From positions 8,619-72,618 of the forward strand of contig JAUYBI010000015.1 in assembly GCA_030693145.1 (NCBI GenBank): 64,000 nucleotides of DNA, written 5' to 3'. Positions 36-52,815 of the stretch are shown here, piece by piece; position 1 is the first letter of the stretch, and each line of letters starts with the position of its first letter. The notes beneath the pieces are model-generated. The model had not been told where the DNA came from. It did no database searches and was given only the letters and a program-made list of their open reading frames with translations. The position numbers and the translations under genes are program-made. The DNA comes from Candidatus Omnitrophota bacterium (GTDB taxonomy: Bacteria; Omnitrophota; Gorgyraeia; Gygaellales; Profunditerraquicolaceae).

Positions 36-160
36 CGCGAAATAAAGAGAAGAATCAAGGGGACGCTTCTATTTTTTCTTCGCGAAGTAAAGAGAAGAAT
101 CAAGGGGACGGTTCTCTTAAGTAAGAGAACCGTCCCCGGGATTTTCGTCCCCGGGATTCC
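36..160. repeat. HpB-family elements upstream of the atp operon: a 35-bp direct repeat (CGCGAA[A/G]TAAAGAGAAGAATCAAGGGGACG[C/G]TTCT, x2), the hairpin GGGGACGGTTCTCTTA-AG-TAAGAGAACCGTCCCC, and a duplicated CGTCCCCGGGATT tail
   Basis: Read directly. The ATG of the b/delta-like gene lies 21 nt downstream. Confidence 0.75.
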
Positions 161-901: not shown

Positions 902-2377
902 ATGCAAATTCAAGCTTTAGATATTAAAGAAGTCGGCAGGGTGGAAGAGGTCAGGCAGGGGATTATCAAGATCAGCGGCCTGCCGAGCTGTTCTTATGGG
1001 GAGGTCATTGAGCTAGCTAATGGCTATAAAGGAATGATTATTGAATTTAATCCTACCGGAGCCTACGGAATTGTTTTTGGTGATGAGCAGGGGGTTAGAG
1101 TCGGGGATCTGGTTTCCAGTAAAGGGGAATTATTAAACGTTCCGGTGGGAGAAAATTTTATCGGCCGGGTGGTGGATGCCTTAGGCAAGCCTTTGGACGG
1201 CCGGGAGGAGATTGAACCGGCAGGTTTTAACCCGGCATTCCGGGAAGCGGCCGGGGTTATGGAACGTGAACCGATTAACCAGGCGCTGCATACGGGAATT
1301 AAAATTATTGACCTTTTAATTCCTTTAGGCAAAGGGCAGCGTGAGTTAATCGTCGGTGACCGGCAGATCGGCAAGACCAGCGTGGGCCTGGATACGATTA
1401 TTAATCAAGTTGGGAAAAATATTATTTGTATCTATTGCTGGATTGGAGGCAATAACGCCGCTTTTAATAAAATTATCCAACAGTTAAAACAAAAAGGTTT
1501 GATGGATTATATCCTGGCGGTTTCCGCTCCTGCCGGAAGTTCTGCCGCCGAGCAGTACCTTTGCCCTTATACCGCCGCTTCTTTAGGTGAATATTTTATG
1601 TATAAAGGTAAAGATGTTTTAGTGGTTTTCGATGATCTGACCAAACACAGCTGGGTTTATCGGCAGATGTCCCTTTTATTAGAGCACGCGCCCGGGCGCG
1701 AAGCGTATCCCGGAGATATTTTCTTTTTGCATTCCCAGCTGATGGAGCGGGCCGGCCGCCTAAAAACTAAATTTGGCGGCGGGTCAATGACCTTTCTGCC
1801 TCTAGCGGAAACCTTACAAGGGGATATTACCGGTTATATTTGCTCCAATATTGTTTCGATGACCGATGGACAGATTTATTTAAATACCAGTCTTTTTCAG
1901 GAAGGGTTTAAGCCGGGAATTGATTTAGAGTTATCGGTTTCACGTATTGGCAGTAAGGTGCAATGTCCGGCGATTAAAGAATTAAGCAAGGGGCTGCGTT
2001 ATGAGTATGTGCAGTTCCGTTCTTTATTGCGCTTAACGCGCTTAAGAACCAAGCTTTCTCCGGAGGCTGCCGCTCAACTACAGCGCGGACGGACTCTTTA
2101 TGAAATTTTAACGCAGGAAAATAATGCTCCGGTTACTCAGGCCGAAGAGATTGCCCTCTTCTATGCTTTTCAGAAAAGGATTTTAGAAGCCTTGGATATC
2201 GCTCAAGTAAAAATATTTAAGCATGAATTTTTTAATCATTTAAAAAAACATAATCAAAGCTTAATTGAGGATTTAGATAGCCGGGGGGAGTTAACCGAAG
2301 AAATTAAGCTGCAGTTAGATAAAGTGATTAAAGAGTTCTTCAGGACCCTTATGCCGGGTGCTAATGAGCCAAAGTAG
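902..2377 (+). CDS. atpA: F-type ATP synthase alpha subunit
   Basis: 491 aa. Walker A is GDRQIGKTS (canonical GDRQTGKT). The sequence is alpha-like throughout, and the gene sits between the b/delta-like and gamma genes. Confidence 0.9.
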   Translation: MQIQALDIKEVGRVEEVRQGIIKISGLPSCSYGEVIELANGYKGMIIEFNPTGAYGIVFGDEQGVRVGDLVSSKGELLNVPVGENFIGRVVDALGKPLDGREEIEPAGFNPAFREAAGVMEREPINQALHTGIKIIDLLIPLGKGQRELIVGDRQIGKTSVGLDTIINQVGKNIICIYCWIGGNNAAFNKIIQQLKQKGLMDYILAVSAPAGSSAAEQYLCPYTAASLGEYFMYKGKDVLVVFDDLTKHSWVYRQMSLLLEHAPGREAYPGDIFFLHSQLMERAGRLKTKFGGGSMTFLPLAETLQGDITGYICSNIVSMTDGQIYLNTSLFQEGFKPGIDLELSVSRIGSKVQCPAIKELSKGLRYEYVQFRSLLRLTRLRTKLSPEAAAQLQRGRTLYEILTQENNAPVTQAEEIALFYAFQKRILEALDIAQVKIFKHEFFNHLKKHNQSLIEDLDSRGELTEEIKLQLDKVIKEFFRTLMPGANEPK

Positions 2378-2474
2378 GGGAGGTTTAAACCTCCCCTACA
2401 GATGTGGATAACTAATGAGCCAAAGTAGGGGGAGAAGTGTCAATTACAGTAGGGTGGGTTTAAACCCACCCTAC
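2374..2474. repeat. Two PalA copies (G-variant GTAGGGGAGGTTTAAACCTCCCCTAC and T-variant GTAGGGTGGGTTTAAACCCACCCTAC) around a 20-bp duplication of the atpA 3' end (CTAATGAGCCAAAGTAGGGG)
   Basis: 26-bp perfect palindromes. The direct repeat at 2361-2380 and 2412-2431 is read directly from the sequence. Confidence 0.85.
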
Positions 2475-3342: not shown

Positions 3343-4853
<1,511 letters not shown>

Positions 4854-12348: not shown

Positions 12349-12618
12349 ATGGTTTGGGAAGCAGCGACTGAAAGCAAGTTTAAGGTCTTAATTTCTAAGA
12401 TCCCGATATTCCATCGGCGGATTACCGAATCCGTAGTTAGGCGTCAAGCTGAAGAGATTGCCGCCAGGCGTAATGCATCTGGAGTCCAAGAGCAGGATGT
12501 GGTGGCGGCTTTTTTTTCGGATGTTCCCTCGCCATTTTACAGTATGATGGTCCGCCTGCTCGGGCAAAATGGGTTTGATTATAAAAAGTACGGTTTTCCT
12601 AAAAACATTAAAAAATAA
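12349..12618 (+). CDS. Small PCP_red-domain protein (protochlorophyllide-reductase 57 kDa C-terminal-domain-like), function unknown
   Basis: 89 aa. W..A...K....KIPIF.RR......R..AEE.A motif resembling the Pfam PCP_red domain. Directly precedes the oxidoreductase gene. Confidence 0.45.
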   Translation: MVWEAATESKFKVLISKIPIFHRRITESVVRRQAEEIAARRNASGVQEQDVVAAFFSDVPSPFYSMMVRLLGQNGFDYKKYGFPKNIKK

Positions 12619-13622
12619 TGCGGATTGCGGTTATTGGTGCCGGAGCCATAGGTTGTTTAGTCGCGGGTTACCTTAAAGAAAAAGGCGAAGAGGTAACTTT
12701 AGTCGGGCATGGCCATACAGTTAAGGCGATTCATGAGCATGGTGTCGCTATCTCCGGGGCCAGGGGAAGTTTTAAGGTGCCGGTGAGCATTGCCGACACC
12801 TTAAACTATATTCCGGATTTAGTAATTTTAACCACTAAAACGCAAAATATTGATTCGGCTTTAGCGGATAGCGCGCATTTAATACAAAACTCTTTGTTGC
12901 TCACCACGCAAAATGGCGTGCAGGCGGATAAGTTGGCGGCAAAATACCTGCCTGCCGAAAAGATTATTTCCAGCATCGTGATGTTCGGCGCGACCAGCTT
13001 AGAAAGCGGCAAGGTGGTGCATAATTTTGAAGGCAGCTGGATAATCGGCAGCCTTTTTAATTCCCACCCTACGGAATCCCTGATTTCTTTAAGCTTGGTT
13101 TTAGACAAGGCCTTTCCTGTGATTATCAGCCAGGATATGCAGGGAATGAAATATTTGAAAATTTTTGTCAATGCTAATAATTGCCTGCCGGCGATTATCG
13201 GCAAGAGCATGCAGGAAGTTTTTAGCGATTTAACGATGAGCCGGATCAGTATCGCTATCTGGAAAGAGGCTTTTGAGGTTTTTGATAAAATCGGGATAGA
13301 TTTAGTTTCTCTTCCCGGGTTTCCGGTGGAGAACCTCACCAAATTTACTACCATGCCCAGCGCGCATGCCGCGGAGATCTTTTCGGCCATGATGAGGAAT
13401 CTAAGCAAAGACCCGTTGTACGGCTCAATATTGCAGAGCATCATGCGCGGTAAACTTTCGGAGATTGATTATATTAACGGTGAATTCGTGCGCCTGGCTG
13501 AGGAAAACAATCTGCAGGCGCCATTGAATAAAATTTTGGTGGACATGGTGCATCAGGTAGAAGCAAACCGAAGATTTTTTAGTAAAGAAGATTTAATCCA
13601 GAAGACTAAGGAGCTGGTTTAG
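12618..13622 (+). CDS. 2-dehydropantoate 2-reductase family oxidoreductase (ApbA/PanE-like)
   Basis: N-terminal MRIAVIGAGAIGCLVAGYL Rossmann motif, DLVILTTK, and a C-terminal ApbA_C-like region (SEIDYINGEFV). 334 aa. Confidence 0.75.
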   Translation: MRIAVIGAGAIGCLVAGYLKEKGEEVTLVGHGHTVKAIHEHGVAISGARGSFKVPVSIADTLNYIPDLVILTTKTQNIDSALADSAHLIQNSLLLTTQNGVQADKLAAKYLPAEKIISSIVMFGATSLESGKVVHNFEGSWIIGSLFNSHPTESLISLSLVLDKAFPVIISQDMQGMKYLKIFVNANNCLPAIIGKSMQEVFSDLTMSRISIAIWKEAFEVFDKIGIDLVSLPGFPVENLTKFTTMPSAHAAEIFSAMMRNLSKDPLYGSILQSIMRGKLSEIDYINGEFVRLAEENNLQAPLNKILVDMVHQVEANRRFFSKEDLIQKTKELV

Positions 13623-13625
13623 ATA

Positions 13626-14213
13626 ATGAATGAAGTAAATACCCCCTTTCCGCGGCTAAGGCTTACCGTAACCCAAGTTATGGGTGTCTGTTACCATGGT
13701 TACAAAATTGGCGATGAGATTATTTTAGAAGATTTTACGCATGGGCCTAAACATTTCTGTTTAGGATTGGCGCACGCTCTTTTTCCGGTAATCTACGCTT
13801 TAAGCTTTGGCGCAAAATTTGGTTTTCGTGATAATCAGCGCTCGCTGTTGGTGACCTGTCCGGATGGAGGCAAGCTGGAGTTTAAAGCCGAGATTTTGGA
13901 TAAACAGGGTAAGCTTGAGGAAATTCCGCGCGACCCGGAACATAAGGGGCCGCAGCCTAAGAAAATGATTCTGGAAGTAGTGCAATCCAAGGGCAAGTGC
14001 ACTTTTGGATATAAAGTAGGTGATAAATGGGAAACGCAGGGTTTAAAATGTATTCCGGATTTTTGCGGAGCGGCATTTCACACTGCTTTTCCGGCTTTGT
14101 TTGCTTTAAATTTTGGAGCCCAGTTTTTCTTTATGCCCAATCCGGATACAATTGATACGGTTACTTGCCCGGATGGCGGGAATATTATTTTTAAAGTGAA
14201 AAGGATAGATTAA
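13626..14213 (+). CDS. Tandem-duplicated TIGR04076-like domain protein, function unknown
   Basis: Two internal repeats. Each carries C.HG.KIGDE ... FC.G.AHA.FP...AL.FGA.F ... CPDGG..F, the pattern I recall for the TIGR04076 small-protein family. Confidence 0.45.
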   Translation: MNEVNTPFPRLRLTVTQVMGVCYHGYKIGDEIILEDFTHGPKHFCLGLAHALFPVIYALSFGAKFGFRDNQRSLLVTCPDGGKLEFKAEILDKQGKLEEIPRDPEHKGPQPKKMILEVVQSKGKCTFGYKVGDKWETQGLKCIPDFCGAAFHTAFPALFALNFGAQFFFMPNPDTIDTVTCPDGGNIIFKVKRID

Positions 14214-14219
14214 AGTAGA

Positions 14220-14259
14220 GTAGGGGAGGTTTAAACCTCCCCTACAGTTGTGGATAACT
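14220..14259. repeat. PalA G-variant with the CAGTTGTGGATAACT tail
   Basis: Perfect 26-bp palindrome at 14220-14245. The tail carries TGTGGATAA. Confidence 0.85.
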
Positions 14260-14283
14260 CACAGTGTGAAAGGAAAAAGAGAA

Positions 14284-15543
14284 GTGATTAAACGCAGGGT
14301 AGTGATTACCGGCATTGGGGTAATTTCGCCTAATGGCATCGGTAAAAAGAATGCCTGGGAAGGTTTTGCCGGCGGAAAATCCGGGGTACGTTTAGTTGAT
14401 GGTTTTGATGTCTCAGTATTTAATACTAAAATTGCCGCGGAGGTGCGCGATTTTGATCCTTTTAAATTAGGCTTAAGCCATGAAGAAGCCATGCGCATGG
14501 ATCGCTATGTGCAATTTGGCGTAGCTGCCGGTAAAATGGCAGTGGAAGACAGTAAGTTGGACTTTTCTCAAGAAGATGTTCAGCGCATCGGCGTTTGTTT
14601 AGCTAATGCTATCTGCGGGACCAAATATATGGAAGAAGAGTTTGCTTTGGTTACTGACGACGGGAAAAAACCCATAGATCCGAGTTTAGTGCGGCCGGAT
14701 TTATATGATGCGGCAATGTTTAATACTCCGTCAATTGAAATCAGCGCGCGTTTCGGCTTAAAAGGAAGTTGTAATACTATTTCCACCGGATGCACCGCAG
14801 GCACGGATTCCTTAGGTTTTGGCCTGGAAAGTATTCAGGATGGGTCGTTGGATGTGATGATTTGCGGAGCAGCCGAAGCGCCGCTTACTCCGATTACCTT
14901 TGGCGCTTTTGACGTGGTAAATGTCTTATCAGTGCATAATGATGAGCCGCAAAAAGCATCGCGCCCCTTTGATAATAAAAGGGATGGGTTTGTTTTAGGA
15001 GAGGGGGCCGGGATACTGGTGCTGGAGGAATTAAATCACGCCTTAAAGCGGAATGCCCCGATTTATTGCGAGATTTTGGGTTTCGGCACCAGTTGTAATG
15101 CTTTTCATATGACGGATCTTCCTTCTGATGGACGGGCAATGGAGACCTGTATTGCCCTGGCCTTAAAAGATGCGCAGGTTAAACCCTCTGAAATTGATTA
15201 TATCAACGCGCATGGCTCAAGTACGCGGATGAATGATATTTTTGAAAGTAATGCTTATAAAGCGATTTTTGACGAAGCTGCCTATCAGCTGCCTATCAGT
15301 TCATTTAAATCTATGATCGGCCACCCTCTGGCTGCGGCTAATGCTATTGAGATGACGATTGCCGCGATGATTTTTGAGAAAAATATTCTTCCTCCGACGA
15401 TAAACCAAGAGGAAAAAGACCCGCAGTGTGACCTGTATTATATTCCCAATGAAGCGATACAGAAAAAAGTAAATATTATTTTAAAAACCAGCAGTGGTTT
15501 TTCAGGGATACACTCTTCGCTGGTTTTGAAACGATTTAAATAA
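14284..15543 (+). CDS. Beta-ketoacyl synthase (FabF/KS-alpha-like), catalytic Cys-His-His present
   Basis: VVITGIGVISPNG. Active-site ISTGCTAGTD. Conserved His residues at HGSSTRMND and SMIGHPLAAA. The track start (14248, TTG) lies inside the palindromic repeat. The GTG at 14284 gives MIKRRVVITG. Confidence 0.85.
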   Translation: MIKRRVVITGIGVISPNGIGKKNAWEGFAGGKSGVRLVDGFDVSVFNTKIAAEVRDFDPFKLGLSHEEAMRMDRYVQFGVAAGKMAVEDSKLDFSQEDVQRIGVCLANAICGTKYMEEEFALVTDDGKKPIDPSLVRPDLYDAAMFNTPSIEISARFGLKGSCNTISTGCTAGTDSLGFGLESIQDGSLDVMICGAAEAPLTPITFGAFDVVNVLSVHNDEPQKASRPFDNKRDGFVLGEGAGILVLEELNHALKRNAPIYCEILGFGTSCNAFHMTDLPSDGRAMETCIALALKDAQVKPSEIDYINAHGSSTRMNDIFESNAYKAIFDEAAYQLPISSFKSMIGHPLAAANAIEMTIAAMIFEKNILPPTINQEEKDPQCDLYYIPNEAIQKKVNIILKTSSGFSGIHSSLVLKRFK

Positions 15544-15611
15544 AGGGGACGGTTCTATTTTTTATAGAGCCTGTTTGATAAAAAAATAGAACCGTCCCCG
15601 GGATTTTAACT
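15543..15611. repeat. HpB hairpin with GGGATTTTAACT tail between the KS and CLF-like genes
   Basis: AAAGGGGACGGTTCTATTTTTT..AAAAAATAGAACCGTCCCC-GGGATTTT, ending at the ATG. Confidence 0.8.
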
Positions 15612-16841
15612 ATGAATAAAATTGCTATCACGGGTATCGGCGTAGTCAGCCCCTCAGGGATCGGCAAGCGGCAATTCTGGGCGAATATTAAAAGCGGACG
15701 CTCGTTCATTAAAAAGATTACGCGTTTTGATGCCAGCCTTTATCCTGCGCATATTGCCGGGCAAATTGATGACCTGGAAAAGTATAGCCATATCTCCGAG
15801 AGGCTGCTGAAGAAAATTGATGCTTTTTCACATATGGCGCTGGTGGCCGCAGAGCTGGCTTTGCAGGATGCCGGGATTGATATTAAGAATGAAGATCCGA
15901 ACCTGGTGGGTATCTTTTTAGGTAATGCTATTGGCGGCTGGCTTTACGCGGAGACAGAGTTAAGGGACCTGTATTTAGAGGGGCGCCAGGGTGTCTCACC
16001 TTACATGGCTAGCGCCTGGTTTCCGGCGGCACCTCAAGGCCAGGTTTCAATTTATTATGGGATTAAAGGTTTTAGCAAGACCGTAGTCAGCGACCGGGCC
16101 AGCTCCCTGATGGCGCTGGGCTATGCCCGGAAAGTTTTGGCTAAAAATAAACTAAACATGATTTTAGCCGGAGGGATGGAGGCGCCGGTTACTCCGTATG
16201 CTTTATTATGTTGTAATACCTATGGGGCGCTCTCTAAAAACAATGATCATCCGGCGGCAGCTTATCGTCCATTTGACCAGGAGCGCAGCGGTTTTGTGAT
16301 TGGCGAAGGCGCGGGGATTGTGGTCATGGAAAGTATTCAACGCGCCAGGGGCCGGGGCGCGAATATTTTAGGCTTAATTAGCGGCTATGGCACTTCTTGT
16401 GACGGGGTAAATAGAATTAATTGCGCTAGCGACGGGAAGGAACTGGCGCGGGCGATAAATATGGCGCTGGCGGATGCCCAAGTGGCTGCTGAAGAAATTG
16501 GTTATATCAGTTTAGACGGCTTGGCAGTGGAGCTTTGGGATAACTCCGAAATTAAAGCGCTAGAATTAGTTTTTGGGGAGAACTTAAAGAAAATTCCTGT
16601 AAGCTGCCCAAAATCTATGTTCGGGAATTTGCTGGGGGCTTCCGGTGTTTTAGATATGATTATCGCGCTTTTAACTATGGAGCATAGTTTAGTCCCTCCG
16701 ATATTGAATTTAGAGAAGCCGGCTTTAAACAGTTTAAATTATGTGGCTAAAGAGTCCAGGGAATATAAGGTAAGTAAATCTTTGATTATTTCACGCGGAA
16801 GAGGCGGGATTAATTCGGTTTTGGTTGTTGAGAAATTATAA
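15612..16841 (+). CDS. Ketosynthase-like partner lacking the catalytic triad (chain-length-factor / KS-beta-like)
   Basis: KS fold (IAITGIGVVSPSG). At the active-site position the sequence is VVSDRASSLMALG, with Arg in place of Cys. Neither conserved His is present (LDGLAVELWD, SMFGNLLGAS). Confidence 0.75.
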   Translation: MNKIAITGIGVVSPSGIGKRQFWANIKSGRSFIKKITRFDASLYPAHIAGQIDDLEKYSHISERLLKKIDAFSHMALVAAELALQDAGIDIKNEDPNLVGIFLGNAIGGWLYAETELRDLYLEGRQGVSPYMASAWFPAAPQGQVSIYYGIKGFSKTVVSDRASSLMALGYARKVLAKNKLNMILAGGMEAPVTPYALLCCNTYGALSKNNDHPAAAYRPFDQERSGFVIGEGAGIVVMESIQRARGRGANILGLISGYGTSCDGVNRINCASDGKELARAINMALADAQVAAEEIGYISLDGLAVELWDNSEIKALELVFGENLKKIPVSCPKSMFGNLLGASGVLDMIIALLTMEHSLVPPILNLEKPALNSLNYVAKESREYKVSKSLIISRGRGGINSVLVVEKL

Positions 16842-16842
16842 G

Positions 16843-16882
16843 GCAGGGGAGGTTTAAACCTCCCCATGTTTTAAAACGGAGG
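16843..16882. repeat. Truncated PalA (GCAGGGGAGGTTTAAACCTCCCC) fused to the ATGTTTTAAAACGGAGG RBS module
   Basis: A chimera of the two repeat families directly upstream of the radical SAM gene start. Confidence 0.7.
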
Positions 16883-16886
16883 AAAT

Positions 16887-18347
16887 ATGAAAATACTATT
16901 TGTTATGCCGAAAGTCGGTGCTTGGGCAACGCATGGAACACATCGTTCTCCGAATCAGTTATACGCGCATTGGGCGGCTTATGCGCGCGAAAGAGGCTAT
17001 GAGGATGTTTCTGTCTTAGACGGTAAAGCAGATCAAATTCCGATGGACGCTCTGATTGAACAAGTAAAACTTAAAAATCCGGATATCGTGGTGATGGGGG
17101 AGCAGCTGCACGGTTATGGCGGATATGGAGTTCTGCGGCATTTTAAAGATGCGGCCCTGGGGATTAAAAAAGCGCTGCCGAGAACAAAAATAATTCTCGG
17201 TGGGTTATGGTATTCCGCAATGCCGGTGCCGACATTAGAGGAGAATCCCGCGGTTGATTTTGTGGTGATGGGGGAAGAAGAATCTTTCGGAGATTTGATT
17301 GAGGCCATCGATAAAAATAAGCCTTTTGGCGACGTGGGCGGAGTCACTTCCCGCGTTGCCGGGGAAATTGTCATGGGCCCCCATAAGCCGCTGATGGAAG
17401 ATTTAGACAAGCTTCCTCTGCCGGCCTATGATTTATTTCCGATGGATAAATATGTAGGCCACACCTATTGGAAACCATTTGTGGATATCGTTACTTCGCG
17501 GGGATGCCCTTCAGCGTGCACCTTTTGTTATGAATGGGATCAGTTTGACCCGCGTTCACCTTCAGATTTCTTGAAATGGCGGGCGAAGTCTCCGGAAAGA
17601 GTTATGGAGGAGCTGAATCTTTTGCATCGAAAGTACGGAGTTAAAGTCGTGGTTATCCAGGACGACAATTTTAATGTCGACCCTAAAAGAGTACAGAAGT
17701 TCTGTGAACTTAAAAAAGCATCGAACAATCCGATTAAGTGGGTATCTTTAGGCCGGGCTATTGATTGGGTTAATTGTGAATCCATCCTGCCCCTGATGAA
17801 GGAAAATGGTTTATTCATGGGTGTTTTCGGTATTGAGGTTACCACGCAATCAGAGCTCAAGCGCATCGCTAAAGGTATTACCATTGACCAGATTAAGAAA
17901 ACCATAGAGATCCTGCGCAAAAATGATATCGCGATTGTCGCCGATATCATGATGGGTTTTGATTATGACACCGAAGCGATTATCAAGCAGCGTTTTGAGT
18001 TTACGGATCAGGTGGATCCGGATATTCTTTGGGTGGGCTATGTTACTCCTGCCCCGAATTCGCCGATGTGGAGGATTGCTTTAAAGAAAAACTGGATTGA
18101 TCCTAAAAAAGTAGATTTTAGCCGGTGGGATTTCTTGCATCCGGTAATTCCTACGGACCATCTGTCTACGGAAGATCTCGGACGCCTGGGTTCCTGGTGT
18201 ATGCGTGAATTTTTTTCCAAGCCCGGGCGCATTAATAGAATTATGGAAAGTGATTTTGATCCATTAGCTAAGCTTTGCTTTCAGGACGTGATGGCCGGAG
18301 TTGGTAAATGGGAAGCAGCCGCAACCAAGGGCGAAGTGCAGATATAG
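16887..18347 (+). CDS. B12-binding-domain radical SAM enzyme (class B radical SAM)
   Basis: N-terminal cobalamin-binding-like domain. Radical SAM core with a CPSACTFC (CxxxCxxC) cluster motif. 486 aa. Confidence 0.8.
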   Translation: MKILFVMPKVGAWATHGTHRSPNQLYAHWAAYARERGYEDVSVLDGKADQIPMDALIEQVKLKNPDIVVMGEQLHGYGGYGVLRHFKDAALGIKKALPRTKIILGGLWYSAMPVPTLEENPAVDFVVMGEEESFGDLIEAIDKNKPFGDVGGVTSRVAGEIVMGPHKPLMEDLDKLPLPAYDLFPMDKYVGHTYWKPFVDIVTSRGCPSACTFCYEWDQFDPRSPSDFLKWRAKSPERVMEELNLLHRKYGVKVVVIQDDNFNVDPKRVQKFCELKKASNNPIKWVSLGRAIDWVNCESILPLMKENGLFMGVFGIEVTTQSELKRIAKGITIDQIKKTIEILRKNDIAIVADIMMGFDYDTEAIIKQRFEFTDQVDPDILWVGYVTPAPNSPMWRIALKKNWIDPKKVDFSRWDFLHPVIPTDHLSTEDLGRLGSWCMREFFSKPGRINRIMESDFDPLAKLCFQDVMAGVGKWEAAATKGEVQI

Positions 18348-18352
18348 AATTA

Positions 18353-18430
18353 AATCAAGGGGACGGTTCTATTTTTCCGTCGCCCAACTGGTTTGAAAAA
18401 CAGAACCGTCCCCATGTTTTAAAACGGAGG
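18353..18430. repeat. HpB hairpin plus the conserved ATGTTTTAAAACGGAGG RBS module upstream of the ACP gene
   Basis: AATCAAGGGGACGGTTCTATTTTTCCGTCGC...CAGAACCGTCCCC-ATGTTTTAAAACGGAGGATAAATG. Confidence 0.8.
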
Positions 18431-18434
18431 ATAA

Positions 18435-18671
18435 ATGGATACAAAAATAAAAATAAAAGAAGTATTGAGCAGTTTATTAAAAGTAAAAATTGAGGAATTA
18501 AAAGACGGCTCTACTTTAATTGACAGCATCGGCGTGGATTCTACGGAGATGGTGGAATCGGTGATTGCCCTGGAAAAATCATTCGGGGTGAAGCTTAGCC
18601 CCAAAGAGATTACCAAGAACTCAACGATTAACGATATCGTAAATAATATCCAGTCAAAGTTAAATAAATAA
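18435..18671 (+). CDS. Acyl carrier protein
   Basis: 78 aa. Phosphopantetheine attachment motif LIDSIGVDSTEMVE (DSxGxDS). Confidence 0.8.
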   Translation: MDTKIKIKEVLSSLLKVKIEELKDGSTLIDSIGVDSTEMVESVIALEKSFGVKLSPKEITKNSTINDIVNNIQSKLNK

Positions 18672-18673
18672 AG

Positions 18674-18711
18674 TTATCCACAACCGTAGGGTGGGTTTAA
18701 ACCCACCCTAC
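18674..18711. repeat. PalA T-variant in inverted tail orientation (TTATCCACAACC-GTAGGGTGGGTTTAAACCCACCCTAC)
   Basis: Perfect palindrome. TTATCCACA precedes it. Confidence 0.85.
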
Positions 18712-18740
18712 AGGGGTAAATAAAAAGAGGAGCCAGCCGG

Positions 18741-19541
18741 GTGAAGATAGTTGATTTAAGCCTGCCCATCGATGAGTCGGCTTTTGAGGTGCACAAGGTG
18801 GATATTGAACGGATAACGCATCGAGCCGGTGTAGATAAATTTAATCGCGTGATTATGGGCAAGGCCCTGTGGGGTAAAATAAAATACGCCTTAGGACAGC
18901 GCATCGTGAAAAAAGAACAGCTGCCCGACGAAGAATTTCTCTCCTTAGAGATCGTGCACGCTCCGGTGCATATCGGAACACACCTGGATTATTCTTTCCA
19001 TTACGGCTCAAAATCAGAGAACCGCGCCTCCAAGACCGCGGATGAGATCCCGTTAGAATATTGTTATCAGGATGGGGTTAAACTTGATTTTAGGCATAAA
19101 AAACCCAATGAGGTAATCAAGGCAGCGGATATAGAAAGCGCTCTAAAGAAGACAAATTATCAACTTAAGCCTTTAGATATTGTATTATTACAGACGGCAG
19201 CGGATAAGCTTTATGGCGGGCCAAAATATTTTTCCGATTATCCTGGCGTAGATCCCTCAGCTATAGAATATCTTTTAGATAAAGGAATTAAGATCTTTGG
19301 CGTAGACACGATGGGGATTGACCGGCCGTATAGATTTATGCTCAGTGAATTTATTAAGACCAAAGATCCAAAGACATTTTATCCAGCGCATTTTTATGGC
19401 CGTAAAAGAGAATTTATCCATATCGAGCGGCTGGCGAACCTGGAAAAAATACCGGATTCCGGTTTTAAGATTCTTTGTTTTCCGATACGCATAAAGAATA
19501 CTGGCGCAGCTTGGGCCAGAGTAGTTGCTCTTTTAGATTAA
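18741..19541 (+). CDS. Cyclase-family protein (Pfam Cyclase / kynurenine-formamidase-like fold)
   Basis: GTG start after RBS aagaggag. HAPVHIGTHLDYSFHYG matches the HxGTHxDxPxH metal-binding motif of the putative cyclase family. Confidence 0.65.
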   Translation: MKIVDLSLPIDESAFEVHKVDIERITHRAGVDKFNRVIMGKALWGKIKYALGQRIVKKEQLPDEEFLSLEIVHAPVHIGTHLDYSFHYGSKSENRASKTADEIPLEYCYQDGVKLDFRHKKPNEVIKAADIESALKKTNYQLKPLDIVLLQTAADKLYGGPKYFSDYPGVDPSAIEYLLDKGIKIFGVDTMGIDRPYRFMLSEFIKTKDPKTFYPAHFYGRKREFIHIERLANLEKIPDSGFKILCFPIRIKNTGAAWARVVALLD

Positions 19542-19548
19542 AATTAAA

Positions 19549-19626
19549 AATCAAGGGGACGGTTCTGTTTTTCCGTCGCTTAATCTAATTGAAAAATAGA
19601 ACCGTCCCCATGTTTTAAAACGGAGG
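19549..19626. repeat. HpB hairpin plus the ATGTTTTAAAACGGAGG module upstream of the SRPBCC gene
   Basis: About 85% identical to the 18353 copy, including the loop TTTTTCCGTCGC. Confidence 0.8.
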
Positions 19627-19631
19627 GACAA

Positions 19632-20072
19632 ATGGGCCACACGTGTAACTCGATTATTATTAATGCGCCTTATGGTTTAGTTTTTGATATTTCTAATGAT
19701 ATTACGCGTTGGACGGAGTTATTCGGTACGGAATATAAAAAAGCAGAGGTAGTGAAGAAAGAATCCAATAAGATTACTTTTCGCCTGACGGATGAAGATG
19801 ATAAATCCTGGCAATCCTGGCGGCTGCTTTTTAAGGATAAGTATTTTGCCTATGCGGAAAGGGAGGAGCCCAAATTTCCTTTTAAATATATGAAGATCAT
19901 CTGGCTTTATACGCCTAAACCAGAAGGAATAGAAATGGCCTGGATCCAACATTTTGAGATGGAGCAAAAGGCTAAGTTTAATGATGCGCAGATTGAAGGG
20001 TTTATTAATGAAGGCTCGCAGGATAATTTGAAGATTTTTAAAGAGATTATTGAAAAAGAAGCGCTGAAGTGA
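19632..20072 (+). CDS. SRPBCC-fold protein (polyketide cyclase/dehydrase-like, Polyketide_cyc2-like)
   Basis: 146 aa. N-terminal IINAPYGLVFDISNDITRWTELF resembles the I.AP.E.VW..L.D.E.WP.W start of Polyketide_cyc2/SRPBCC proteins. Confidence 0.45.
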   Translation: MGHTCNSIIINAPYGLVFDISNDITRWTELFGTEYKKAEVVKKESNKITFRLTDEDDKSWQSWRLLFKDKYFAYAEREEPKFPFKYMKIIWLYTPKPEGIEMAWIQHFEMEQKAKFNDAQIEGFINEGSQDNLKIFKEIIEKEALK

Positions 20073-21199
20073 AAAAGGCTACATTTAGTATACTTTGCCT
20101 GGAAGGAGCGGTTTTATCATTTAATGTGGCCGCTGCCGCAGCCCTGATCCCGTCAATTGCCGCGGATTTTGCTCTTTCTCAGTTTTTTGTGGGTAAGATA
20201 ATTTGGCTATATATGCTCCCCTATGGACTGGCGGCATTTCTTTATGGGCCGCTGGTGCGCGCTTTTGATGCGCGGAAAGTAGAGCTGGCCTGTATCTTCT
20301 TATTCTCCCTGGCTAATCTTCTGGCAGGTTTAGCTCCGGATATTCATACGCTTTTTGCAGCCAGGTTTCTCATGGGGATTTTTGGCGCCTCGGTAATTCC
20401 GCTGGGTTTAATTCTGATTGCTAAACATATCCGGCAGAATAAGCGCGGAGGCTATGTGGGAATATTTTTTGGCTGGACCTTTGTTGCTTCTTTACTGGGG
20501 TTATTTTTAAGCGGGTTAATTCCCTGGCGCTGGATATTTATAATTCCGGCAGTTTTAGGGCTGGTTCTGTGGGTTTTTATGTATTTTTATTTGCCTAGTT
20601 TTAAAGAAGGCCTGGGGGTTTTTCGTTTCGGGTATCTGGAAGCATTTAAAGATAAGAAAGTAGCGAGGATCTTTCTTTACATCTTTCTGATTAGTTTAAT
20701 TTATCATGGGGTGCAGCAGTGGCTGGGGGTTTATTTTTCTACGCAGCTTTTCTTAAACCAGTTTACGATTAGCATGATGATTACCTTAACCAGCTTGAGC
20801 GGAATATTCGGGGAATTTTGGGGAGGACATCTTGCGGATCAGCTAGGCAGGCCCAGAGTAGTAAGCCTGGGTATTATTGCCATGGTTCTGGGCATCCTTT
20901 TGCTTTTATTAAAATTGCCTTTAACCTTACTCGGCCTGGCGATGATCATTTGGGGCTTGGGTTGGACCTTTAATCATGTAGGCTTGGCGACGATGTTAAC
21001 GGACCTGCCGCCAGAATTCTTAAATGAAGCGGCTAGCTTAAATAGCGGAGTGCGTTTTATTGCCGGCGGGCTGGGGGTAAGTTTAGGCGGCCTGTTGATG
21101 CTTAAAAGTTTTAATTTTGGTTTTGTTATTTTTGGCAGCGCGCTGGTTTTGCTTTTATTTTCAGGCAGAGTGTTTAAATTTAAACAACCGGCAAATTGA
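20069..21199 (+). CDS. MFS transporter
   Basis: 376 aa. About 12 predicted TM helices with MFS-like loops (DQLGRPRV). The GTG start overlaps the upstream stop (GTGA). Confidence 0.75.
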   Translation: MKKATFSILCLEGAVLSFNVAAAAALIPSIAADFALSQFFVGKIIWLYMLPYGLAAFLYGPLVRAFDARKVELACIFLFSLANLLAGLAPDIHTLFAARFLMGIFGASVIPLGLILIAKHIRQNKRGGYVGIFFGWTFVASLLGLFLSGLIPWRWIFIIPAVLGLVLWVFMYFYLPSFKEGLGVFRFGYLEAFKDKKVARIFLYIFLISLIYHGVQQWLGVYFSTQLFLNQFTISMMITLTSLSGIFGEFWGGHLADQLGRPRVVSLGIIAMVLGILLLLLKLPLTLLGLAMIIWGLGWTFNHVGLATMLTDLPPEFLNEAASLNSGVRFIAGGLGVSLGGLLMLKSFNFGFVIFGSALVLLLFSGRVFKFKQPAN

Positions 21200-21239
21200 C
21201 CGGGGCCGTTGTAGAGAGAATTTCAAAGGAGGATTTATC

Positions 21240-22016
21240 ATGGGTACGGATTTAAAAGGACGTGTTGCTATCATTACCGGAGCCAGCCGCGGTATTGGCA
21301 AGGCCCTGGCTTGCACTGCGGCAAGCCTGGGAATAAATTTGGTGATCGGCGCCCGCGGCCAGGAAGCTTTAAATGAGGCCGCCGCAGAGATTGCCGGAAA
21401 ATTTAAAGTACAGGTTTTGCCGGTGGCTTGCGATGTGACCAAGCTGGAGGATTTGGAGAAGCTGGTTAAAAGCGCCAAGGAAAAGTTTGGCCAGATCGAT
21501 ATTCTGATCAATAATGCCGGAGTTTCCAGCCAGTATCCTTTTCAGGATCAGCCAATCGAAGATTTCGAAAGGTTGGCCCACACCAATTACCTGGGTTATG
21601 TCAGGCTTATCCGCCTGGTGATTAATGATATGATCAAGAATAAAAGCGGAGCGATTATTAATATGGTTTCCGGCTCGACTTTATGCGACCCGCTGCCTAG
21701 GAATTTTATCGTTTACAGTTCACTTAAGGTTGGCTTAAGGGCATTTTCTAAAGGATTATTTTGGGAACTGCGCGATCATGGGATCAAAGTGACTTCGATA
21801 TTGCCCGGAGTAACCGATACGGATTTAACCGGTAAATTACAGGAGATTACCGCGGATACCTCGCGTTTAATGACTACCGAAGCGATTGAGAATGCCGTGC
21901 GTTTTGCTTTGACTGTGCCGGCGAATGTCTGCCCTTTAGAGATCGCGGTGATTAACCAACAGACACCCTGGACTGCTCCGGTGATACCGTTTCAACAGCG
22001 GCATCCGGGAAAGTAA
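21240..22016 (+). CDS. Short-chain dehydrogenase/reductase (SDR, ketoreductase-like)
   Basis: GRVAIITGASRGIGKALA NAD(P)-binding motif and INNAG. The ATG at 21240 follows RBS aaggagg. The track start at 21117 overlaps the MFS gene. Confidence 0.8.
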   Translation: MGTDLKGRVAIITGASRGIGKALACTAASLGINLVIGARGQEALNEAAAEIAGKFKVQVLPVACDVTKLEDLEKLVKSAKEKFGQIDILINNAGVSSQYPFQDQPIEDFERLAHTNYLGYVRLIRLVINDMIKNKSGAIINMVSGSTLCDPLPRNFIVYSSLKVGLRAFSKGLFWELRDHGIKVTSILPGVTDTDLTGKLQEITADTSRLMTTEAIENAVRFALTVPANVCPLEIAVINQQTPWTAPVIPFQQRHPGK

Positions 22017-22025
22017 AAAGGAAAT

Positions 22026-22445
22026 ATGAATAATCAGGATATTAAGAATTTAAAGAAGCGTTATTTTATCTGGCTCTATAAAGCCGCCAAAGAAACCTTT
22101 GATAAATACGAGCGTAAGTTTACGCAAGTGGATATTGATAAGGATATCCTGGAAGAGATGGAGAAAGAGCTTTTAGGCTCCTATCTTCCTCATGAAAAAG
22201 ACGCCCTGCAAATGCAGATCAACGATTTTCAAAAATATATCGAGAATAAAGAAAAGTCTTGTTCAGAATTCAGGGATCAGCATAAAAAGATCAATCCGGA
22301 TTTTATTTTCTCAGAGATAAAACTGAATGCTATTGAGAAAGTAATTGTTAAGGGGTTAGGCAAAAGAGGCTTAGAGGAAATAAAATCCCTTTATGAAAAA
22401 GAAATGACTGAACGCATCTTAAAGAATACGGAGCTTTCCCGGTAA
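22026..22445 (+). CDS. Hypothetical helical protein
   Basis: 139-aa ORF inside the operon. Lys/Glu-rich with no recognisable motif. Confidence 0.4.
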   Translation: MNNQDIKNLKKRYFIWLYKAAKETFDKYERKFTQVDIDKDILEEMEKELLGSYLPHEKDALQMQINDFQKYIENKEKSCSEFRDQHKKINPDFIFSEIKLNAIEKVIVKGLGKRGLEEIKSLYEKEMTERILKNTELSR

Positions 22446-23356
22446 TGTTAATTGACGCGCATAGCCATTGGCTGCCGGAAGAAATAATTACTAATGCCCA
22501 TTTTTTTCATAAAGGATGGGGTGAGATTGAGGTGCAGCTTAAGGTTATGGATGAGGCAGGAATTGACCGGGCAGTCTTAAGTTATCCCACAACAGACGCG
22601 CATTTAAAGTTAGGCAGTATCAGCCAAGTAGCGCATATTTATAATGATAATGTTGCCAAGATTTTAAAAGCTTATCCGGAAAGATTTATCGGTGCGGCGG
22701 TTTTACCGGTAGATAATTCTTATGATATGCTGGAAGAGCTAAAGCGGGCAATCAATGAGTTAGGTTTTAAGGCAATTTCCCTTGCCTCAAGTTATAACGG
22801 TATATATTTGGATGACAAGATGTTTTTACCTATATATAAAGAAGCACAAGAAAAGGATATCCCGATCTTTGTGCATGCGCAAATTGTGAACCCGATAGGT
22901 TTTGAGCGGGTTAAGGATCCTCTGCTTACCCCGGTAGTGGAATATGTTTTTGATACTACGATTTCAATCGGCAAGCTTTTAATGTCGGATATTCTACGGC
23001 AGTATCCTAAGGTAAAATTTATTTTCGCCCATTTTGGCGGGGCAATCTGCTATCTAAAGCAGCGCTTTGACGCCACTTATCAGATGCTGCGGGAGATGAA
23101 CTTTGTTAAAGACTTACAGGGGCTTCCTTCAGATTATTTTAAGAATATCTACGTCGATACCAGCGGCGATACGACTAAGGCGAATTTCCTGCTTGCTCTT
23201 GAACTCATGGGCCCAGAACATATTTTGTGGGGCTCTGACTGGCCAGCTAAAAAAGATATGGCCAGTGGTATTAAAGCTGTCAATGATTTGGATATATCTG
23301 GAGAGGATAAACAAAATATCTTGGGTAGTAATTTAGAGAAGATATTCGCTCTTTAG
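22445..23356 (+). CDS. Amidohydrolase-2 family protein (ACMSD/decarboxylase/hydratase-like TIM-barrel metalloenzyme)
   Basis: MLIDAHSHWLPEE N-terminal metal-binding motif typical of Amidohydro_2. The start overlaps the upstream stop (TAATG). Confidence 0.65.
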   Translation: MLIDAHSHWLPEEIITNAHFFHKGWGEIEVQLKVMDEAGIDRAVLSYPTTDAHLKLGSISQVAHIYNDNVAKILKAYPERFIGAAVLPVDNSYDMLEELKRAINELGFKAISLASSYNGIYLDDKMFLPIYKEAQEKDIPIFVHAQIVNPIGFERVKDPLLTPVVEYVFDTTISIGKLLMSDILRQYPKVKFIFAHFGGAICYLKQRFDATYQMLREMNFVKDLQGLPSDYFKNIYVDTSGDTTKANFLLALELMGPEHILWGSDWPAKKDMASGIKAVNDLDISGEDKQNILGSNLEKIFAL

Positions 23357-23462
23357 CAATTTTTGCGGGTCCCCGCCACTAAATCGTTGGCGGGCAGGCT
23401 GTCTTGGGTATTTTCTAGCGCTGACGCGCGTCGAAAACACCCAAGCCACCCGCAAAATAGAC
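23357..23462. repeat. GC-rich palindromic element, family D (TTTTTGCGGGT..CTTGGGTATTTTC..GAAAACACCCAAG..ACCCGCAAAA) with an internal 26-bp hairpin insert. Left boundary of the AT-rich islet
   Basis: Near-reverse-complement of the 28745 element. About 65% GC in a ~42% GC background. Confidence 0.7.
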
Positions 23463-23528
23463 AAATTAATAGACTCTCAGAGTTAGTGAAAATAGAAACG
23501 GTCCCATTATTTTCTCAAGGAGGGGGCG

Positions 23529-26780: not shown

Positions 26781-26892
26781 CTTTTCGTAAATAAAAGTTT
26801 ATTTAGAAGTAATGGGGTCAGAATTATTTGTTGACGGAAAAATGAGAGTGGGTAGTAGGTACTAGAGATAATTAACAGAAAGGTAAAATAAG

Positions 26893-27058
26893 ATGCAAAT
26901 GCAAAAAACGTTCATTTAACTGGAAAAGATCTGACGGAGATGGTGCAGCTTCGGAGGCAGGATGTGGGCAAGTACGCGATTGTGCCTGGGCCGCGCGACC
27001 GTTTGGATGTATTAATGAAAAAAATTGAGAATCCGGTGCGTAATTTTTCATTTATGAA
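26893..27058 (+). pseudogene. Degenerate 5' fragment (about 56 codons, frameshifted) duplicating the start of the phosphorylase gene at 27992
   Basis: About 90% nucleotide identity to 27992-28157 (agatgcaaatgcaaaa...taatttttcatttatg). A 1-nt deletion near codon 5 breaks the frame. It ends at a half copy of the GGGGACGGTTCT hairpin. Confidence 0.6.
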
Positions 27059-27078
27059 ATAAAGGGGACGGTTCTATT

Positions 27079-27165
27079 TAGCGGGTGGCGAGGCTTGGAC
27101 TCGAGCAGCATCTCAAAAATTCGAGCGGGCACGGTCCCGCCAAGACTCTTGGCGGGGAGCGAGAA
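27079..27165. repeat. GC-rich structured element (TTTAGCGGGTGGCGAGGCTTGG...CCAAGACTCTTGGCGGGGAGCG) upstream of the Phd/Doc module
   Basis: Complementary arms are read directly. It directly follows a half HpB repeat. Confidence 0.55.
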
Positions 27166-27199
27166 TTAGATAAAATATTTCGTTTGACTGAAGATATTT

Positions 27200-27262
27200 T
27201 TATGTTAACCTAATGGTGTATGGTTAACATATGTTAACTAAGATAACATTGGTTAACAAGAG
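27200..27262. promoter_or_regulatory. Four GTTAAC-centred half-sites forming two inverted repeats, a candidate operator for the HTH antitoxin, directly upstream of the Phd/Doc module
   Basis: GTTAAC at 27204, 27223, 27233 and 27252. The central pair forms the perfect 16-bp palindrome GTTAACATATGTTAAC. Confidence 0.5.
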
Positions 27263-27267
27263 GAGAT

Positions 27268-28741: not shown

Positions 28742-28744
28742 AAT

Positions 28745-28818
28745 TTTTGCGGGTGGCTTGGGTGTTTTCGTAGCGCGTCAGCGCAAGAAAATACCCAAGA
28801 CAGGACCCGCAAAAAAAG
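28745..28818. repeat. GC-rich palindromic element, family D (TTTTTGCGGGTGGCTTGGGTGTTTTCG-TAGCGCGTCAGCGC-AAGAAAATACCCAAGACAGGACCCGCAAAAA), right boundary of the islet
   Basis: Imperfect 27-bp arms read directly. Lies between the phosphorylase and the MtnA-like gene. Confidence 0.7.
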
Positions 28819-33777: not shown

Positions 33778-33809
33778 ACAGTAGGGGAGGTTTAAACCTC
33801 CCCTACTGT
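33778..33809. repeat. PalA G-variant, extended palindrome ACAGTAGGGGAGGTTTAAACCTCCCCTACTGT
   Basis: Read directly. Lies between the CoA-ligase gene and rlmN. Confidence 0.85.
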
Positions 33810-35623: not shown

Positions 35624-35706
35624 TGCTGGAGGAGGGAGTTGAACCCTCACGGAGTTGCCCCCATCGGTTTTTGAGACCGACGTGTATGCCATTCCACCAC
35701 TCCAGC
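35624..35706 (-). tRNA. tRNA-Leu (anticodon CAA), type II with long variable arm
   Basis: Minus-strand read GCTGGAG-TG-GTG..CAC-G-TCGGT-CTCAAAA-ACCGA-(15-nt variable arm)-GAGGG-TTCAACT-CCCTC-CTCCAGC-A. The cloverleaf was folded by hand. Confidence 0.8.
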
Positions 35707-39960: not shown

Positions 39961-40030
39961 TAGAATAAAGGGACCGTTTCTATTTTTTAAAAGAAAAAAT
40001 AGAAACGGTCCCTTTATTCTGAAACGGTCC
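39961..40030. terminator. Bidirectional intrinsic-terminator-like perfect hairpin between convergent leuS and the response-regulator gene
   Basis: ataaagggaccgtttctatttttt-aaaag-aaaaaatagaaacggtccctttat forms a 24-bp perfect stem flanked by T/A runs. It is a variant of the GGGACNGTTCT hairpin family. Confidence 0.5.
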
Positions 40031-42524: not shown

Positions 42525-42573
42525 TATAGGGGACGGTTCTGTTTTTTAAATAAAAAAATAGAACCGTCCCCTA
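42525..42573. repeat. HpB hairpin (ATAGGGGACGGTTCTGTTTTTT-AAATA-AAAAAATAGAACCGTCCCCTAT), perfect palindrome
   Basis: Read directly. Terminator-like, lying after comEC. Confidence 0.8.
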
Positions 42574-46786: not shown

Positions 46787-46818
46787 ACAGTAGGGGAGGT
46801 TTAAACCTCCCCTACTGT
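46787..46818. repeat. PalA G-variant between murJ and uvrC
   Basis: ACAGTAGGGGAGGTTTAAACCTCCCCTACTGT. Confidence 0.85.
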
Positions 46819-52762: not shown

Positions 52763-52815
52763 CAAGGGGACGGTTCTCTTATTTAAGAGAACCGTCCCCG
52801 GGATTTTAAAAATTC
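52763..52815. repeat. HpB hairpin with GGGATTTTAAAAATTCAGGAG tail upstream of secA
   Basis: CAAGGGGACGGTTCTCTTATTTAAGAGAACCGTCCCC-GGGATTTT. Confidence 0.8.

Follow-up and report, generated by a model that had tools for sequence, protein, structure and literature searches.

Hairpin repeats in a biosynthetic operon of a Candidatus Omnitrophota bacterium are probably REPIN-like units copied from the terminal inverted repeats of a RAYT-like element

Repetitive extragenic palindromes (REPs) of Proteobacteria are short, densely distributed palindromes whose inverted pairs, or REPINs, form long hairpins; a cognate HUH/Y1 gene, the REP-associated tyrosine transposase (RAYT), is itself flanked by the repeats (a REPtron), and sequence families differ from genome to genome (Nunvar 2010; Bertels & Rainey 2011, PMC3116915). 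RAYTs are described as domesticated (PMC5581495). In a related arrangement, termed TIRtron or TIRYT, RAYT-like genes lie between long terminal inverted repeats (TIRs) instead of GTAG REPs; the TIRs, described for a set of 26 genes, have GGGGWSAS in common, and TIR families occur as dimers or clusters (Di Nocera et al. 2013, PMC3733652). According to Quentin et al. (2018, PMC6006769), TIRYT are TnpA-Y1 subclass 2.1, with C-terminal domains resembling Bac_DnaA_C, HTH_23 or HTH_28, and the subclass corresponds to RAYT group 1 of Bertels et al. (2017, PMC5581495); that survey reports no REP-like sequences for it. The present analysis concerns a palindromic repeat, HpB, that recurs in a 64 000 nt stretch (the window) of a Candidatus Omnitrophota bacterium (GCA_030693145.1, contig JAUYBI010000015.1, positions 8619–72 618), where three copies lie within a biosynthetic operon. 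HpB is an inverted pair of 12-mers, GGGGACGGTTCT...AGAACCGTCCCC. It is a repeated intergenic palindrome whose presence varies among relatives, and in many genomes its core forms the matched terminal repeat of a RAYT-like gene. HpB units are therefore most probably non-autonomous, REPIN-like copies of the TIRs of a RAYT-like HUH/Y1 element (TIRtron/TIRYT; RAYT group 1/TnpA-Y1 subclass 2.1).

At up to one mismatch, GGGGACGGTTCT had 17 matches in the window against 0.10 expected from shuffled sequences. These assembled into seven complete hairpins and a few solitary 12-mers (Table 1); overall, the window holds seven core dimers plus three or four singletons. HpB stems are 12–26 bp long with loops of 4–31 nt, CGTC is located within the paired 12-mer (AGAACCGTCCCC), and AAATCAA or AAATAAA borders the arms, which have no GTAG. 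An earlier note, made from the sequence of the window, had placed HpB copies in the KS–CLF, rSAM–ACP and cyclase–SRPBCC spacers; all three are occupied as described, and Pfam matches confirmed the genes as KS, CLF, B12-binding radical SAM (rSAM), ACP, cyclase and SRPBCC, with SecA likewise identified. At these three sites the core starts 1–13 nt past the stop codon. The KS>CLF core begins 1 nt past the KS stop and its tail, GGGATTTTAACT, reaches the CLF ATG at 15612. The loops of the copies at 18359 and 19555 are each other's closest relatives.

The pattern GGGGACGGTTCT-N8-38-AGAACCGTCCCC was searched for in one representative genome per species, and the exact 12-mer pair was found at 120 loci or more (at least 120). 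The loci listed bear at least nine phylum-level labels in their record titles and include isolates (Oribacterium, Butyrivibrio, Rossellomorea, Neobacillus and Micropruina). Most are from Bacillota, with others from Bacteroidota, Actinomycetota, Omnitrophota (six metagenome-assembled genomes, MAGs), Elusimicrobiota, Atribacterota, Aminicenantes, Planctomycetales and a 'delta proteobacterium'. Among them the 12-bp core stays constant, complementarity is retained in the outer arms and the inner spacer even though these are genome-specific, and the distance between the two inverted cores ranges from 8 to 38 nt. In Omnitrophota the left outer arm is A-rich and the right T-rich, while most other phyla have no T-rich 3′ flank. 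An all-against-all blastp comparison detected no conserved neighbour gene around the 120 listed hairpins beyond generic families, indicating that HpB does not serve a single gene family as its leader. Sequences flanking the 12-mer pair are inverted complements of each other, with outer–outer pairing averaging 5.4 of 7 positions; a DDE-type miniature inverted-repeat transposable element was rejected, as its target-site duplications would be direct repeats. In about half of the listed hairpins the arm outside a core has further complementarity to the one immediately inside. This permits an alternative local fold (X-L-X′) of two small hairpins, each with the 12-mer as its loop, for which mean pairing was 4.3 bp against 2.3 bp in a cross-locus control; this pairing was absent from some families, for example that of Oribacterium. 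Many listed loci carry several copies or tandem core arrays at 21–46 nt periods. The tandem arrays consist of four to six cores at fixed periods of 21, 23, 34 or 34–46 nt, resemble iterons and sometimes have a mirror-image array after them. A literature search for GGGGACGGTTCT returned only unrelated primer sequences.

At two of these loci the 12-mer brackets a transposase gene. In L015 (Clostridiales UBA3678; loci outside the window are given L numbers) an open reading frame of 258 aa matching Y1_Tnp is bracketed by six forward and four reverse 12-mers, and in L065 (Oribacterium sp. NK2B42) a homologue lies between two hairpins. Both proteins match Y1_Tnp at E ~2e-16; the best NCBIfam model is REP_Tyr_transpos, below its curated cut-off, and the NCBIfam IS200 model scored only 16–22 bits against the transposases found. 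The alignment contains an HVH motif and a Y---NP motif (YVHQNP or YILQNP; HVH and YVHQNP in the L015 protein). Homologues were then collected from metagenomes by protein similarity alone, giving 80 loci of which 35 were full-length. A core with up to one mismatch was present within 260 nt upstream in 18 of the 35, and inverted downstream in 18 of the 35, while a control 12-mer at the same tolerance matched 0 of 1994 windows. Left and right core variants co-vary within a locus (GGGGTCGGTCCT, GGGGACGTTTCT, GGGGACGGTCCT, GGGGACGGTTCC and GGGGACGCCCCT), and the consensus is GGGG[A/T]CGGT[T/C]CT. Shorter, more distant homologues were without the core. Y1_Tnp was matched by all 24 members scanned, with weak, sub-threshold helix-turn-helix (HTH) hits to HTH_23 in four, HTH_28 in two and HTH_3 in two. 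An AlphaFold model (pLDDT 83.7) has a helical C-terminal domain at residues 192–257. The best match in a fold search was 4ER8, the Escherichia coli REP-associated tyrosine transposase in complex with a REP hairpin (E 7.7e-7, TM 0.72), followed by the TnpA proteins of IS608 and ISDra2; 4ER8 came from the fold search only, since a PDB sequence search with the transposase profile gave no match. In L130, L134, L135, L136, L157 and others the upstream core lies ~65 nt before the transposase start and abuts a TTGACA box, with a TATAAT-like box ~17 nt after it. The terminal repeat thus overlaps the likely promoter of the transposase gene itself, which suggests autoregulation and may be the reason for the TGACA/TGTCA-like arms that are common beside the core in Bacillota.

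This arrangement resembles published descriptions of TIRtrons and TIRYT in having a Y1 gene between inverted repeats starting with GGGG, dispersed dimers and clusters, a C-terminal HTH-like extension and a wide, patchy distribution. The Y1 gene between matched inverted repeats was observed in genomes other than that of the window, whereas TIR copies as singletons, dimers and clusters occur in both; class-2 motifs are present together with the C-terminal HTH-like domain, the HTH part of which rests on sub-threshold matches. The transposase family would belong to subclass 2.1, judging by domain pattern and motifs rather than by a tree. The core, GGGGACGG(TTCT), is one position off GGGGWSAS, and one metagenomic homologue (L183) has GGGGACAG, a full fit. 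Omnitrophota hosts, a near-invariant cross-phylum core of ~12 nt and tandem 21-nt arrays appear to go beyond the TIRtron descriptions cited. HpB shares with the REP/REPIN–RAYT systems the dense short extragenic palindromes, inverted pairs forming a long hairpin, the cognate HUH/Y1 gene flanked by repeats and the genome-specific families. It differs in lacking GTAG/GTGG at the stem foot (which the co-resident family HpA has), in that conservation falls on a 12-mer within the stem and not on a 4-nt tag, and in that the transposase is of another subclass with an extra C-terminal domain. A classical GTAG-type REP was accordingly rejected for HpB, which has the many-copy extragenic palindrome feature without the conserved foot. 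CGTC-tagged REPs (Di Nocera 2013), which have an 8–9-bp stem, a 4–5-nt loop, an unpaired CGTC and no transposase, were ruled out by stem and loop geometry, tag position and transposase association. IS200/IS605 elements and their miniature derivatives (PATEs) have the HUH/Y1 fold in common with the transposase found here, and their transposase recognises single-stranded end hairpins; their ends are asymmetric subterminal hairpins, in contrast to the matched inverted 12-mers of HpB. Like E. coli REPs and BIMEs, which act as stabilisers of mRNA, modulators of translation and weak terminators, HpB forms stable hairpins within operons a few nucleotides past stop codons, and a functional parallel may be drawn from this position. 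The finding is ordinary in kind: a REP-like palindrome, probably of TIRtron/RAYT group 1 type, newly seen in Omnitrophota, where it takes up spacers of a polyketide-like operon.

Eight orthologous operons (L097 and L203–L209, mostly Omnitrophota) were compared with the window, giving nine loci. The rSAM homologues are 73–95 % identical, many of them labelled Omnitrophota, and the ten genes keep their order across the related genomes (Table 1). Variable accessory genes (cupin, 23S_rRNA_IVP, CBM_11 and NTP_transf_5) are inserted at junctions that accept palindromes. The KS>CLF spacer is 68 nt with HpB in the window; five relatives have either an 8- or 1-nt overlap or a gap of 2 nt there, and L208 has a different, 152-nt palindrome. 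At rSAM>ACP (87 nt, HpB) there are plain GGAGG sites in spacers of 9 nt (L204), 13 nt (L097) and 19 nt (L208), other palindromes in L203, L205, L206 (of a third family, HpC) and L207, and two independent HpB copies in L209. At cyclase>SRPBCC (90 nt, HpB) the spacer is 11 nt in L097 and 21 nt in L208. The other two junctions hold HpA in the window: ACP>cyclase (69 nt) is an overlap or abutment in six relatives, and CLF>rSAM (45 nt, truncated HpA) has a palindrome in six relatives with adjacent genes (HpB in L097, other families elsewhere) and none in L206 (29 nt). All spacers longer than 40 nt fold into a hairpin except the 53-nt cyclase>SRPBCC spacer of L206 (about −10 kcal/mol); these hairpins are strong except for two (CLF>rSAM in L203 and rSAM>ACP in L207) and usually represent a different palindrome in each genome, and no spacer of 35 nt or less has a hairpin. 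The earlier note's idea of a dedicated cassette of hairpin and ribosome-binding site is not supported by these operons, which use overlaps, 9–29-nt spacers with ordinary GGAGG, or hairpins of unrelated repeat families. Since the same junctions have no hairpin or unrelated ones in the orthologues, the hairpin is dispensable and interchangeable, and HpB represents a lineage-specific insertion; L205–L208 are free of HpB. In the closest relative, L203 (rSAM 95 % identical), a GTGACAGTCAC palindrome is nested in the loop of HpB copies; the same repeat also fills the CLF>rSAM and rSAM>ACP spacers, beside CCCCGGGATTTT, a relic of the HpB end. The 13-nt rSAM>ACP spacer of L097 reads TGAtGGGAGGACGGTTatg, which resembles the 12-mer core carrying an AG insertion and also serves as a Shine–Dalgarno (SD) site; it may be what remains of a deleted HpB, or the match may be due to chance.

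The HpB unit consists of two inverted 12-bp cores (GGGGACGGTTCT), a short family-specific spacer between them and genome-specific outer arms. Under the transposon-derived explanation, the transposase would act in trans to copy it, in the manner of the single-stranded hairpin processing of RAYT and IS200 systems. Copies would persist only where tolerated, in the slot between a stop codon and the SD of the next gene of a very compact genome, and those in the operon would be lineage-specific tolerated insertions. Once transcribed, the hairpins are probably by-products acting like E. coli REPs, as barriers to 3′-exonucleases, weak attenuators or spacers that uncouple translation; a role as stabiliser or attenuator is plausible by this analogy, and a REP-like effect on translation of the upstream gene is possible where the hairpin lies within ~15 nt of the stop. 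Several points weigh against this explanation. GGGGACGG matches GGGGWSAS at only seven of eight positions, with G for A at position 7. No Y1 transposase gene was detected by tblastn or hmmsearch in the window, its short flanks (L121 and L122) or ~190 kb of related, mostly Omnitrophota, loci, and HpB may be active in the window genome or a fossil. Mobilisation is inferred, and the transposase may act on single-stranded hairpins or on double-stranded 12-mers. Hairpins are present at CLF>rSAM in seven of the eight genomes in which the two genes are adjacent, and this high occupancy could reflect selection for a hairpin there. Gain in the window and loss in relatives are not fully separable with so few genomes, and the L097 spacer GGGAGGACGGTT is a possible relic.

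The occupancy of CLF>rSAM (7/8) and rSAM>ACP (6/9) also allows a two-part explanation, the first part of which is that both junctions are selected for a strong hairpin. The hairpins may then be mRNA punctuation that uncouples or stabilises operon segments, each lineage recruiting whichever mobile palindrome it hosts. HpB would have been exapted and, in the lineage of the window, would form a true cassette of hairpin and SD, copied as a unit to two further junctions. Separately, as the second part, the near-invariant 12-mer, seen under at least nine phylum-level labels, would be a deeply conserved code for protein–DNA recognition in RAYT group 1. This combination is considered rather unlikely.

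The earlier note had favoured a selected, portable module, combining a hairpin (attenuator, stabiliser or processing site) with a standard SD to set the expression of operon segments. In its favour is a 17-nt leader, ATGTTTTAAAACGGAGG, which occurs exactly three times in the window against 0.03 expected, 4, 4 and 5 nt from start codons and not the five to six proposed. Further support comes from the SD of the leader, which adjoins a very stable hairpin and remains unpaired in the minimum-free-energy fold, from the hairpins of different repeat families found at CLF>rSAM (7/8) and rSAM>ACP (6/9), and from E. coli REPs, which are reported to make upstream mRNA more stable and to influence translation (Khemici & Carpousis 2004; Gilson 1986; Higgins 1988; Liang, Rudd & Deutscher 2015; refs 27–30 as listed in PMC6006769). 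The proposed identical SD context holds in that rSAM, ACP and SRPBCC have the same 17 nt, but the copy at 16866 comes after an HpA-family hairpin, GGGGAGGTTTAAACCTCCCC, and not after HpB. Within the window the leader was found only in the biosynthetic operon. A second type of HpB tail, GGGATTTTAACT-ATG, leads directly into a start codon, and CCCCGGGATTTT is present three times in the window, a count reached in 7 of 100 shuffles and so not above chance on its own. Hairpins do precede secA and an atp gene, in line with the earlier note, but the SDs there (AGGAG for secA) lie past the shared tail and those of secA and atpF are unlike each other. The hairpin itself is a repeated portable unit, while the ribosome-binding site is not a property of the family: the copies at 42529 and 61942 have other tails with no SD or ATG behind, as do the copies in six other Omnitrophota MAGs, whose tails are unrelated. 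In addition, L204, L208 and L097 manage the same junctions with 9–19-nt spacers and plain GGAGG, the 12-mer pair has unrelated neighbour genes in many phyla and is found on both sides of a transposase gene, and junction occupancy follows the absence of translational coupling, as the tolerated-insertion model predicts. A 15-nt sequence, GTTTTAAAACGGAGG, lies upstream of rSAM in the window, L097 and L203 after three different upstream sequences or hairpins, which ties the leader to the rSAM gene in this subclade; it looks like rSAM's own leader and not a component of HpB. For the other two copies in the window, the best reading is flank carried along with a copied HpB unit, or the 10-nt tail ATGTTTTAAA, also present at 61995, abutting a native GGAGG site. 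The earlier note had also set store by the position of copies relative to genes and start codons. All 31 palindromes counted in the window (23 HpA, seven HpB and one variant hairpin) are intergenic; nearness to start codons is, however, uninformative, because every spacer in a window that is 92.5 % coding and 7.5 % non-coding is tiny, and such short spacers mean that start-codon position does not discriminate between a regulatory module and ordinary REP-like behaviour. A dedicated regulatory module is accordingly judged improbable.

Another explanation holds that the 12-mers are double-stranded protein-binding sites with a host function, such as operator or iteron arrays or nucleoid-structuring sites, bound by the HTH domain of a domesticated transposase. 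The tandem arrays at 21–23-nt periods (about two helical turns), the upstream 12-mer at a fixed distance directly beside the TTGACA −35 box of the transposase gene, the helical, HTH-like C-terminal domain of the protein and the description of RAYTs as domesticated (PMC5581495) would all fit. A core-to-core distance that varies from 8 to 38 nt is unlike that of dimeric operators, the outer and inner arms stay complementary, pointing to hairpin formation, and the presence of copies differs between close relatives. This explanation is judged very unlikely; it bears on what the system does and is compatible with the identity of the repeat.

As RNA, the HpB hairpins have folding energies of −33 to −39 kcal/mol and z-scores of −3.9 to −11.5. 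Their tails read AUGUUUUAAAA or GGGAUUUU, with the U residues base-paired to the A-rich arm upstream, and the sites lie between co-operonic genes. No HpB copy was listed by a terminator scan, the 3–8-nt loop limit of which would exclude most of them, and HpB hairpins are probably poor canonical terminators. That they are ordinary intrinsic terminators or attenuators which arose in place and are alike through shared constraints is scarcely credible: although the stem base is G+C-rich and followed by AUGUUUU or GGGAUUUU, and the related HpA hairpin at 16846 passes a simple terminator scan, the U run is 4 nt, offset by 3 nt and paired with the A-rich arm, copies sit inside an operon, in the KS–CLF gap, most other phyla lack a T-rich 3′ flank, and identical 12-bp cores recurring seven times here and at 120 or more loci elsewhere indicate descent or copying rather than convergence. 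Rho-independent terminators, which canonically carry about 6–8 U straight after the stem and close a transcription unit, share with HpB a G+C-rich stem followed by some U, and differ in the repeated core, the intra-operonic position and the short, offset, partly paired U tract. In a search of the window with Rfam 15 the gathering score was reached by two tRNAs only, and an E-value search of 15400–19700 gave only chance matches to miRNA precursors far below threshold.

The window contains at least three families of palindromic repeats (HpB, HpA and HpC), and almost half of the intergenic gaps hold a member of one of them. HpA, with 23 copies, has the consensus GTAGGG[GT][GA]GGTTTAAACC[CT][CA]CCCTAC and a GTAG head as in classical REPs. 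Its stem variants are compensatory (GGGGAGG/CCTCCCC, GGGTGGG/CCCACCC and GGGCAGG/CCTGCCC), and copies are frequently inverted doublets within longer palindromes; HpA was not seen in any retrieved locus of other Omnitrophota genomes. HpC is a palindrome of ~65 nt, TTTGCGGGTCC..TGTCTTGGGTATTTTCTAGCGCTGACGCGCGTCGAAAACACCCAAGCCACCCGCAAAA, with two copies in the window; copies are 90–95 % identical between different Omnitrophota MAGs, and HpC had no Rfam match at gathering score. The gene-free stretch of 487 nt that contains one solitary core had no Rfam match even at E ≤ 1.

Table 1. Positions of HpB units, leader copies, other palindromes and associated features in the window and in other loci
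Feature	Locus	Position	Strand	Context
HpB, short loop CTTAAGTAAG, tail GGGATTTT	Window	104–137		43 nt upstream of ATP synthase b/delta gene
Degenerate solitary 12-mer	Window	59–70		Near the 104–137 copy
HpB	Window	15545–15599		KS>CLF spacer; extended stem 15535–15609 takes in KS stop codon
HpB	Window	18359–18413		rSAM>ACP spacer; extended stem 18350–18422
HpB	Window	19555–19609		Cyclase>SRPBCC spacer; extended stem 19548–19616
HpB, perfect 26-bp stem, −39.3 kcal/mol, no SD tail	Window	42529–42571		124 nt past ComEC-like gene, 59 nt ahead of TPR gene
HpB, short loop, tail GGGATTTT	Window	52766–52799		Between release-factor gene and secA, 25 nt upstream of secA
HpB, one mismatch in right arm, tail ATGTTTTAAA, no ACGGAGG	Window	61942–61994		Upstream of CitMHS-type transporter gene
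Solitary 12-mer	Window	27064–27075	+	Inside gene-free stretch 26781–27267
Solitary 12-mer, one mismatch	Window	33831–33842	−	Adjoins HpA copy 33781–33806
Variant hairpin, cores GGGACCGTTTCT/AGAAACGGTCCC	Window	39962–40020		Both arms altered together
Solitary variant core	Window	23494–23505
Leader copy ATGTTTTAAAACGGAGG	Window	16866–16882	+	4 nt upstream of rSAM ATG
Leader copy	Window	18414–18430	+	4 nt upstream of ACP ATG
Leader copy	Window	19610–19626	+	5 nt upstream of SRPBCC ATG
Truncated HpA-type hairpin GCAGGGGAGGTTTAAACCTCCCCATG	Window	16843–16868		CLF>rSAM spacer; orthologue L097 has HpB there
HpA	Window	18686–18711		ACP>cyclase spacer; most orthologues overlap or abut at this junction
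HpA, further examples of the 23 copies	Window	2374–2399, 4779–4804, 14220–14245, 33781–33806, 46790–46815, 60361–60427
HpC	Window	23365–23457	+
HpC	Window	28743–28814	−
HpC	L016	7803–7874
HpC	L206			rSAM>ACP spacer
Biosynthetic gene set	Window	12349–23356		Ketopantoate-reductase-like, KS, CLF, B12-rSAM, ACP, cyclase, SRPBCC, MFS, SDR, amidohydrolase
Gene-free stretch, 487 nt	Window	26781–27267		Follows HEPN-domain gene; G+C-rich, structured-looking sequence after solitary core 27064
tRNA gene	Window	35624–35706	−	Divergent from the next
tRNA gene	Window	35774–35847	+
Tandem core arrays	L015	4448–4564, 5710–5784
Tandem core array	L078	4808–4981
Tandem core array	L050	1934–2147
Tandem core array	L110	1363–1651
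Nested HpB and GTGACAGTCAC repeats	L203	5465–5571, 6927–7009
Spacer TGAtGGGAGGACGGTTatg	L097	2396–2412		rSAM>ACP

Read as tolerated copies of the TIRs of a RAYT-like element, the long spacers of the operon would be parasitic or neutral palindromes and not designed leaders, which removes a tempting regulatory interpretation. Such repeats can pass for terminators or small RNAs in annotation, and they break up short-read assemblies: Logan contigs with genes of the window were only 2.6 and 6.7 kb long. Genes of this genome occur in Logan sample SRR13727537. To our knowledge, RAYT group 1 has no known function or substrate at present. It is reported to be the largest RAYT class, equivalent to subclass 2.1, yet no REP-like partner was reported in the systematic survey. 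The 12-mer GGGGACGGTTCT, with its position abutting the −35 box, its co-varying ends and its tandem arrays, provides a concrete candidate substrate for that class, and the system has culturable hosts, such as Oribacterium and, by protein homologues, Butyrivibrio.

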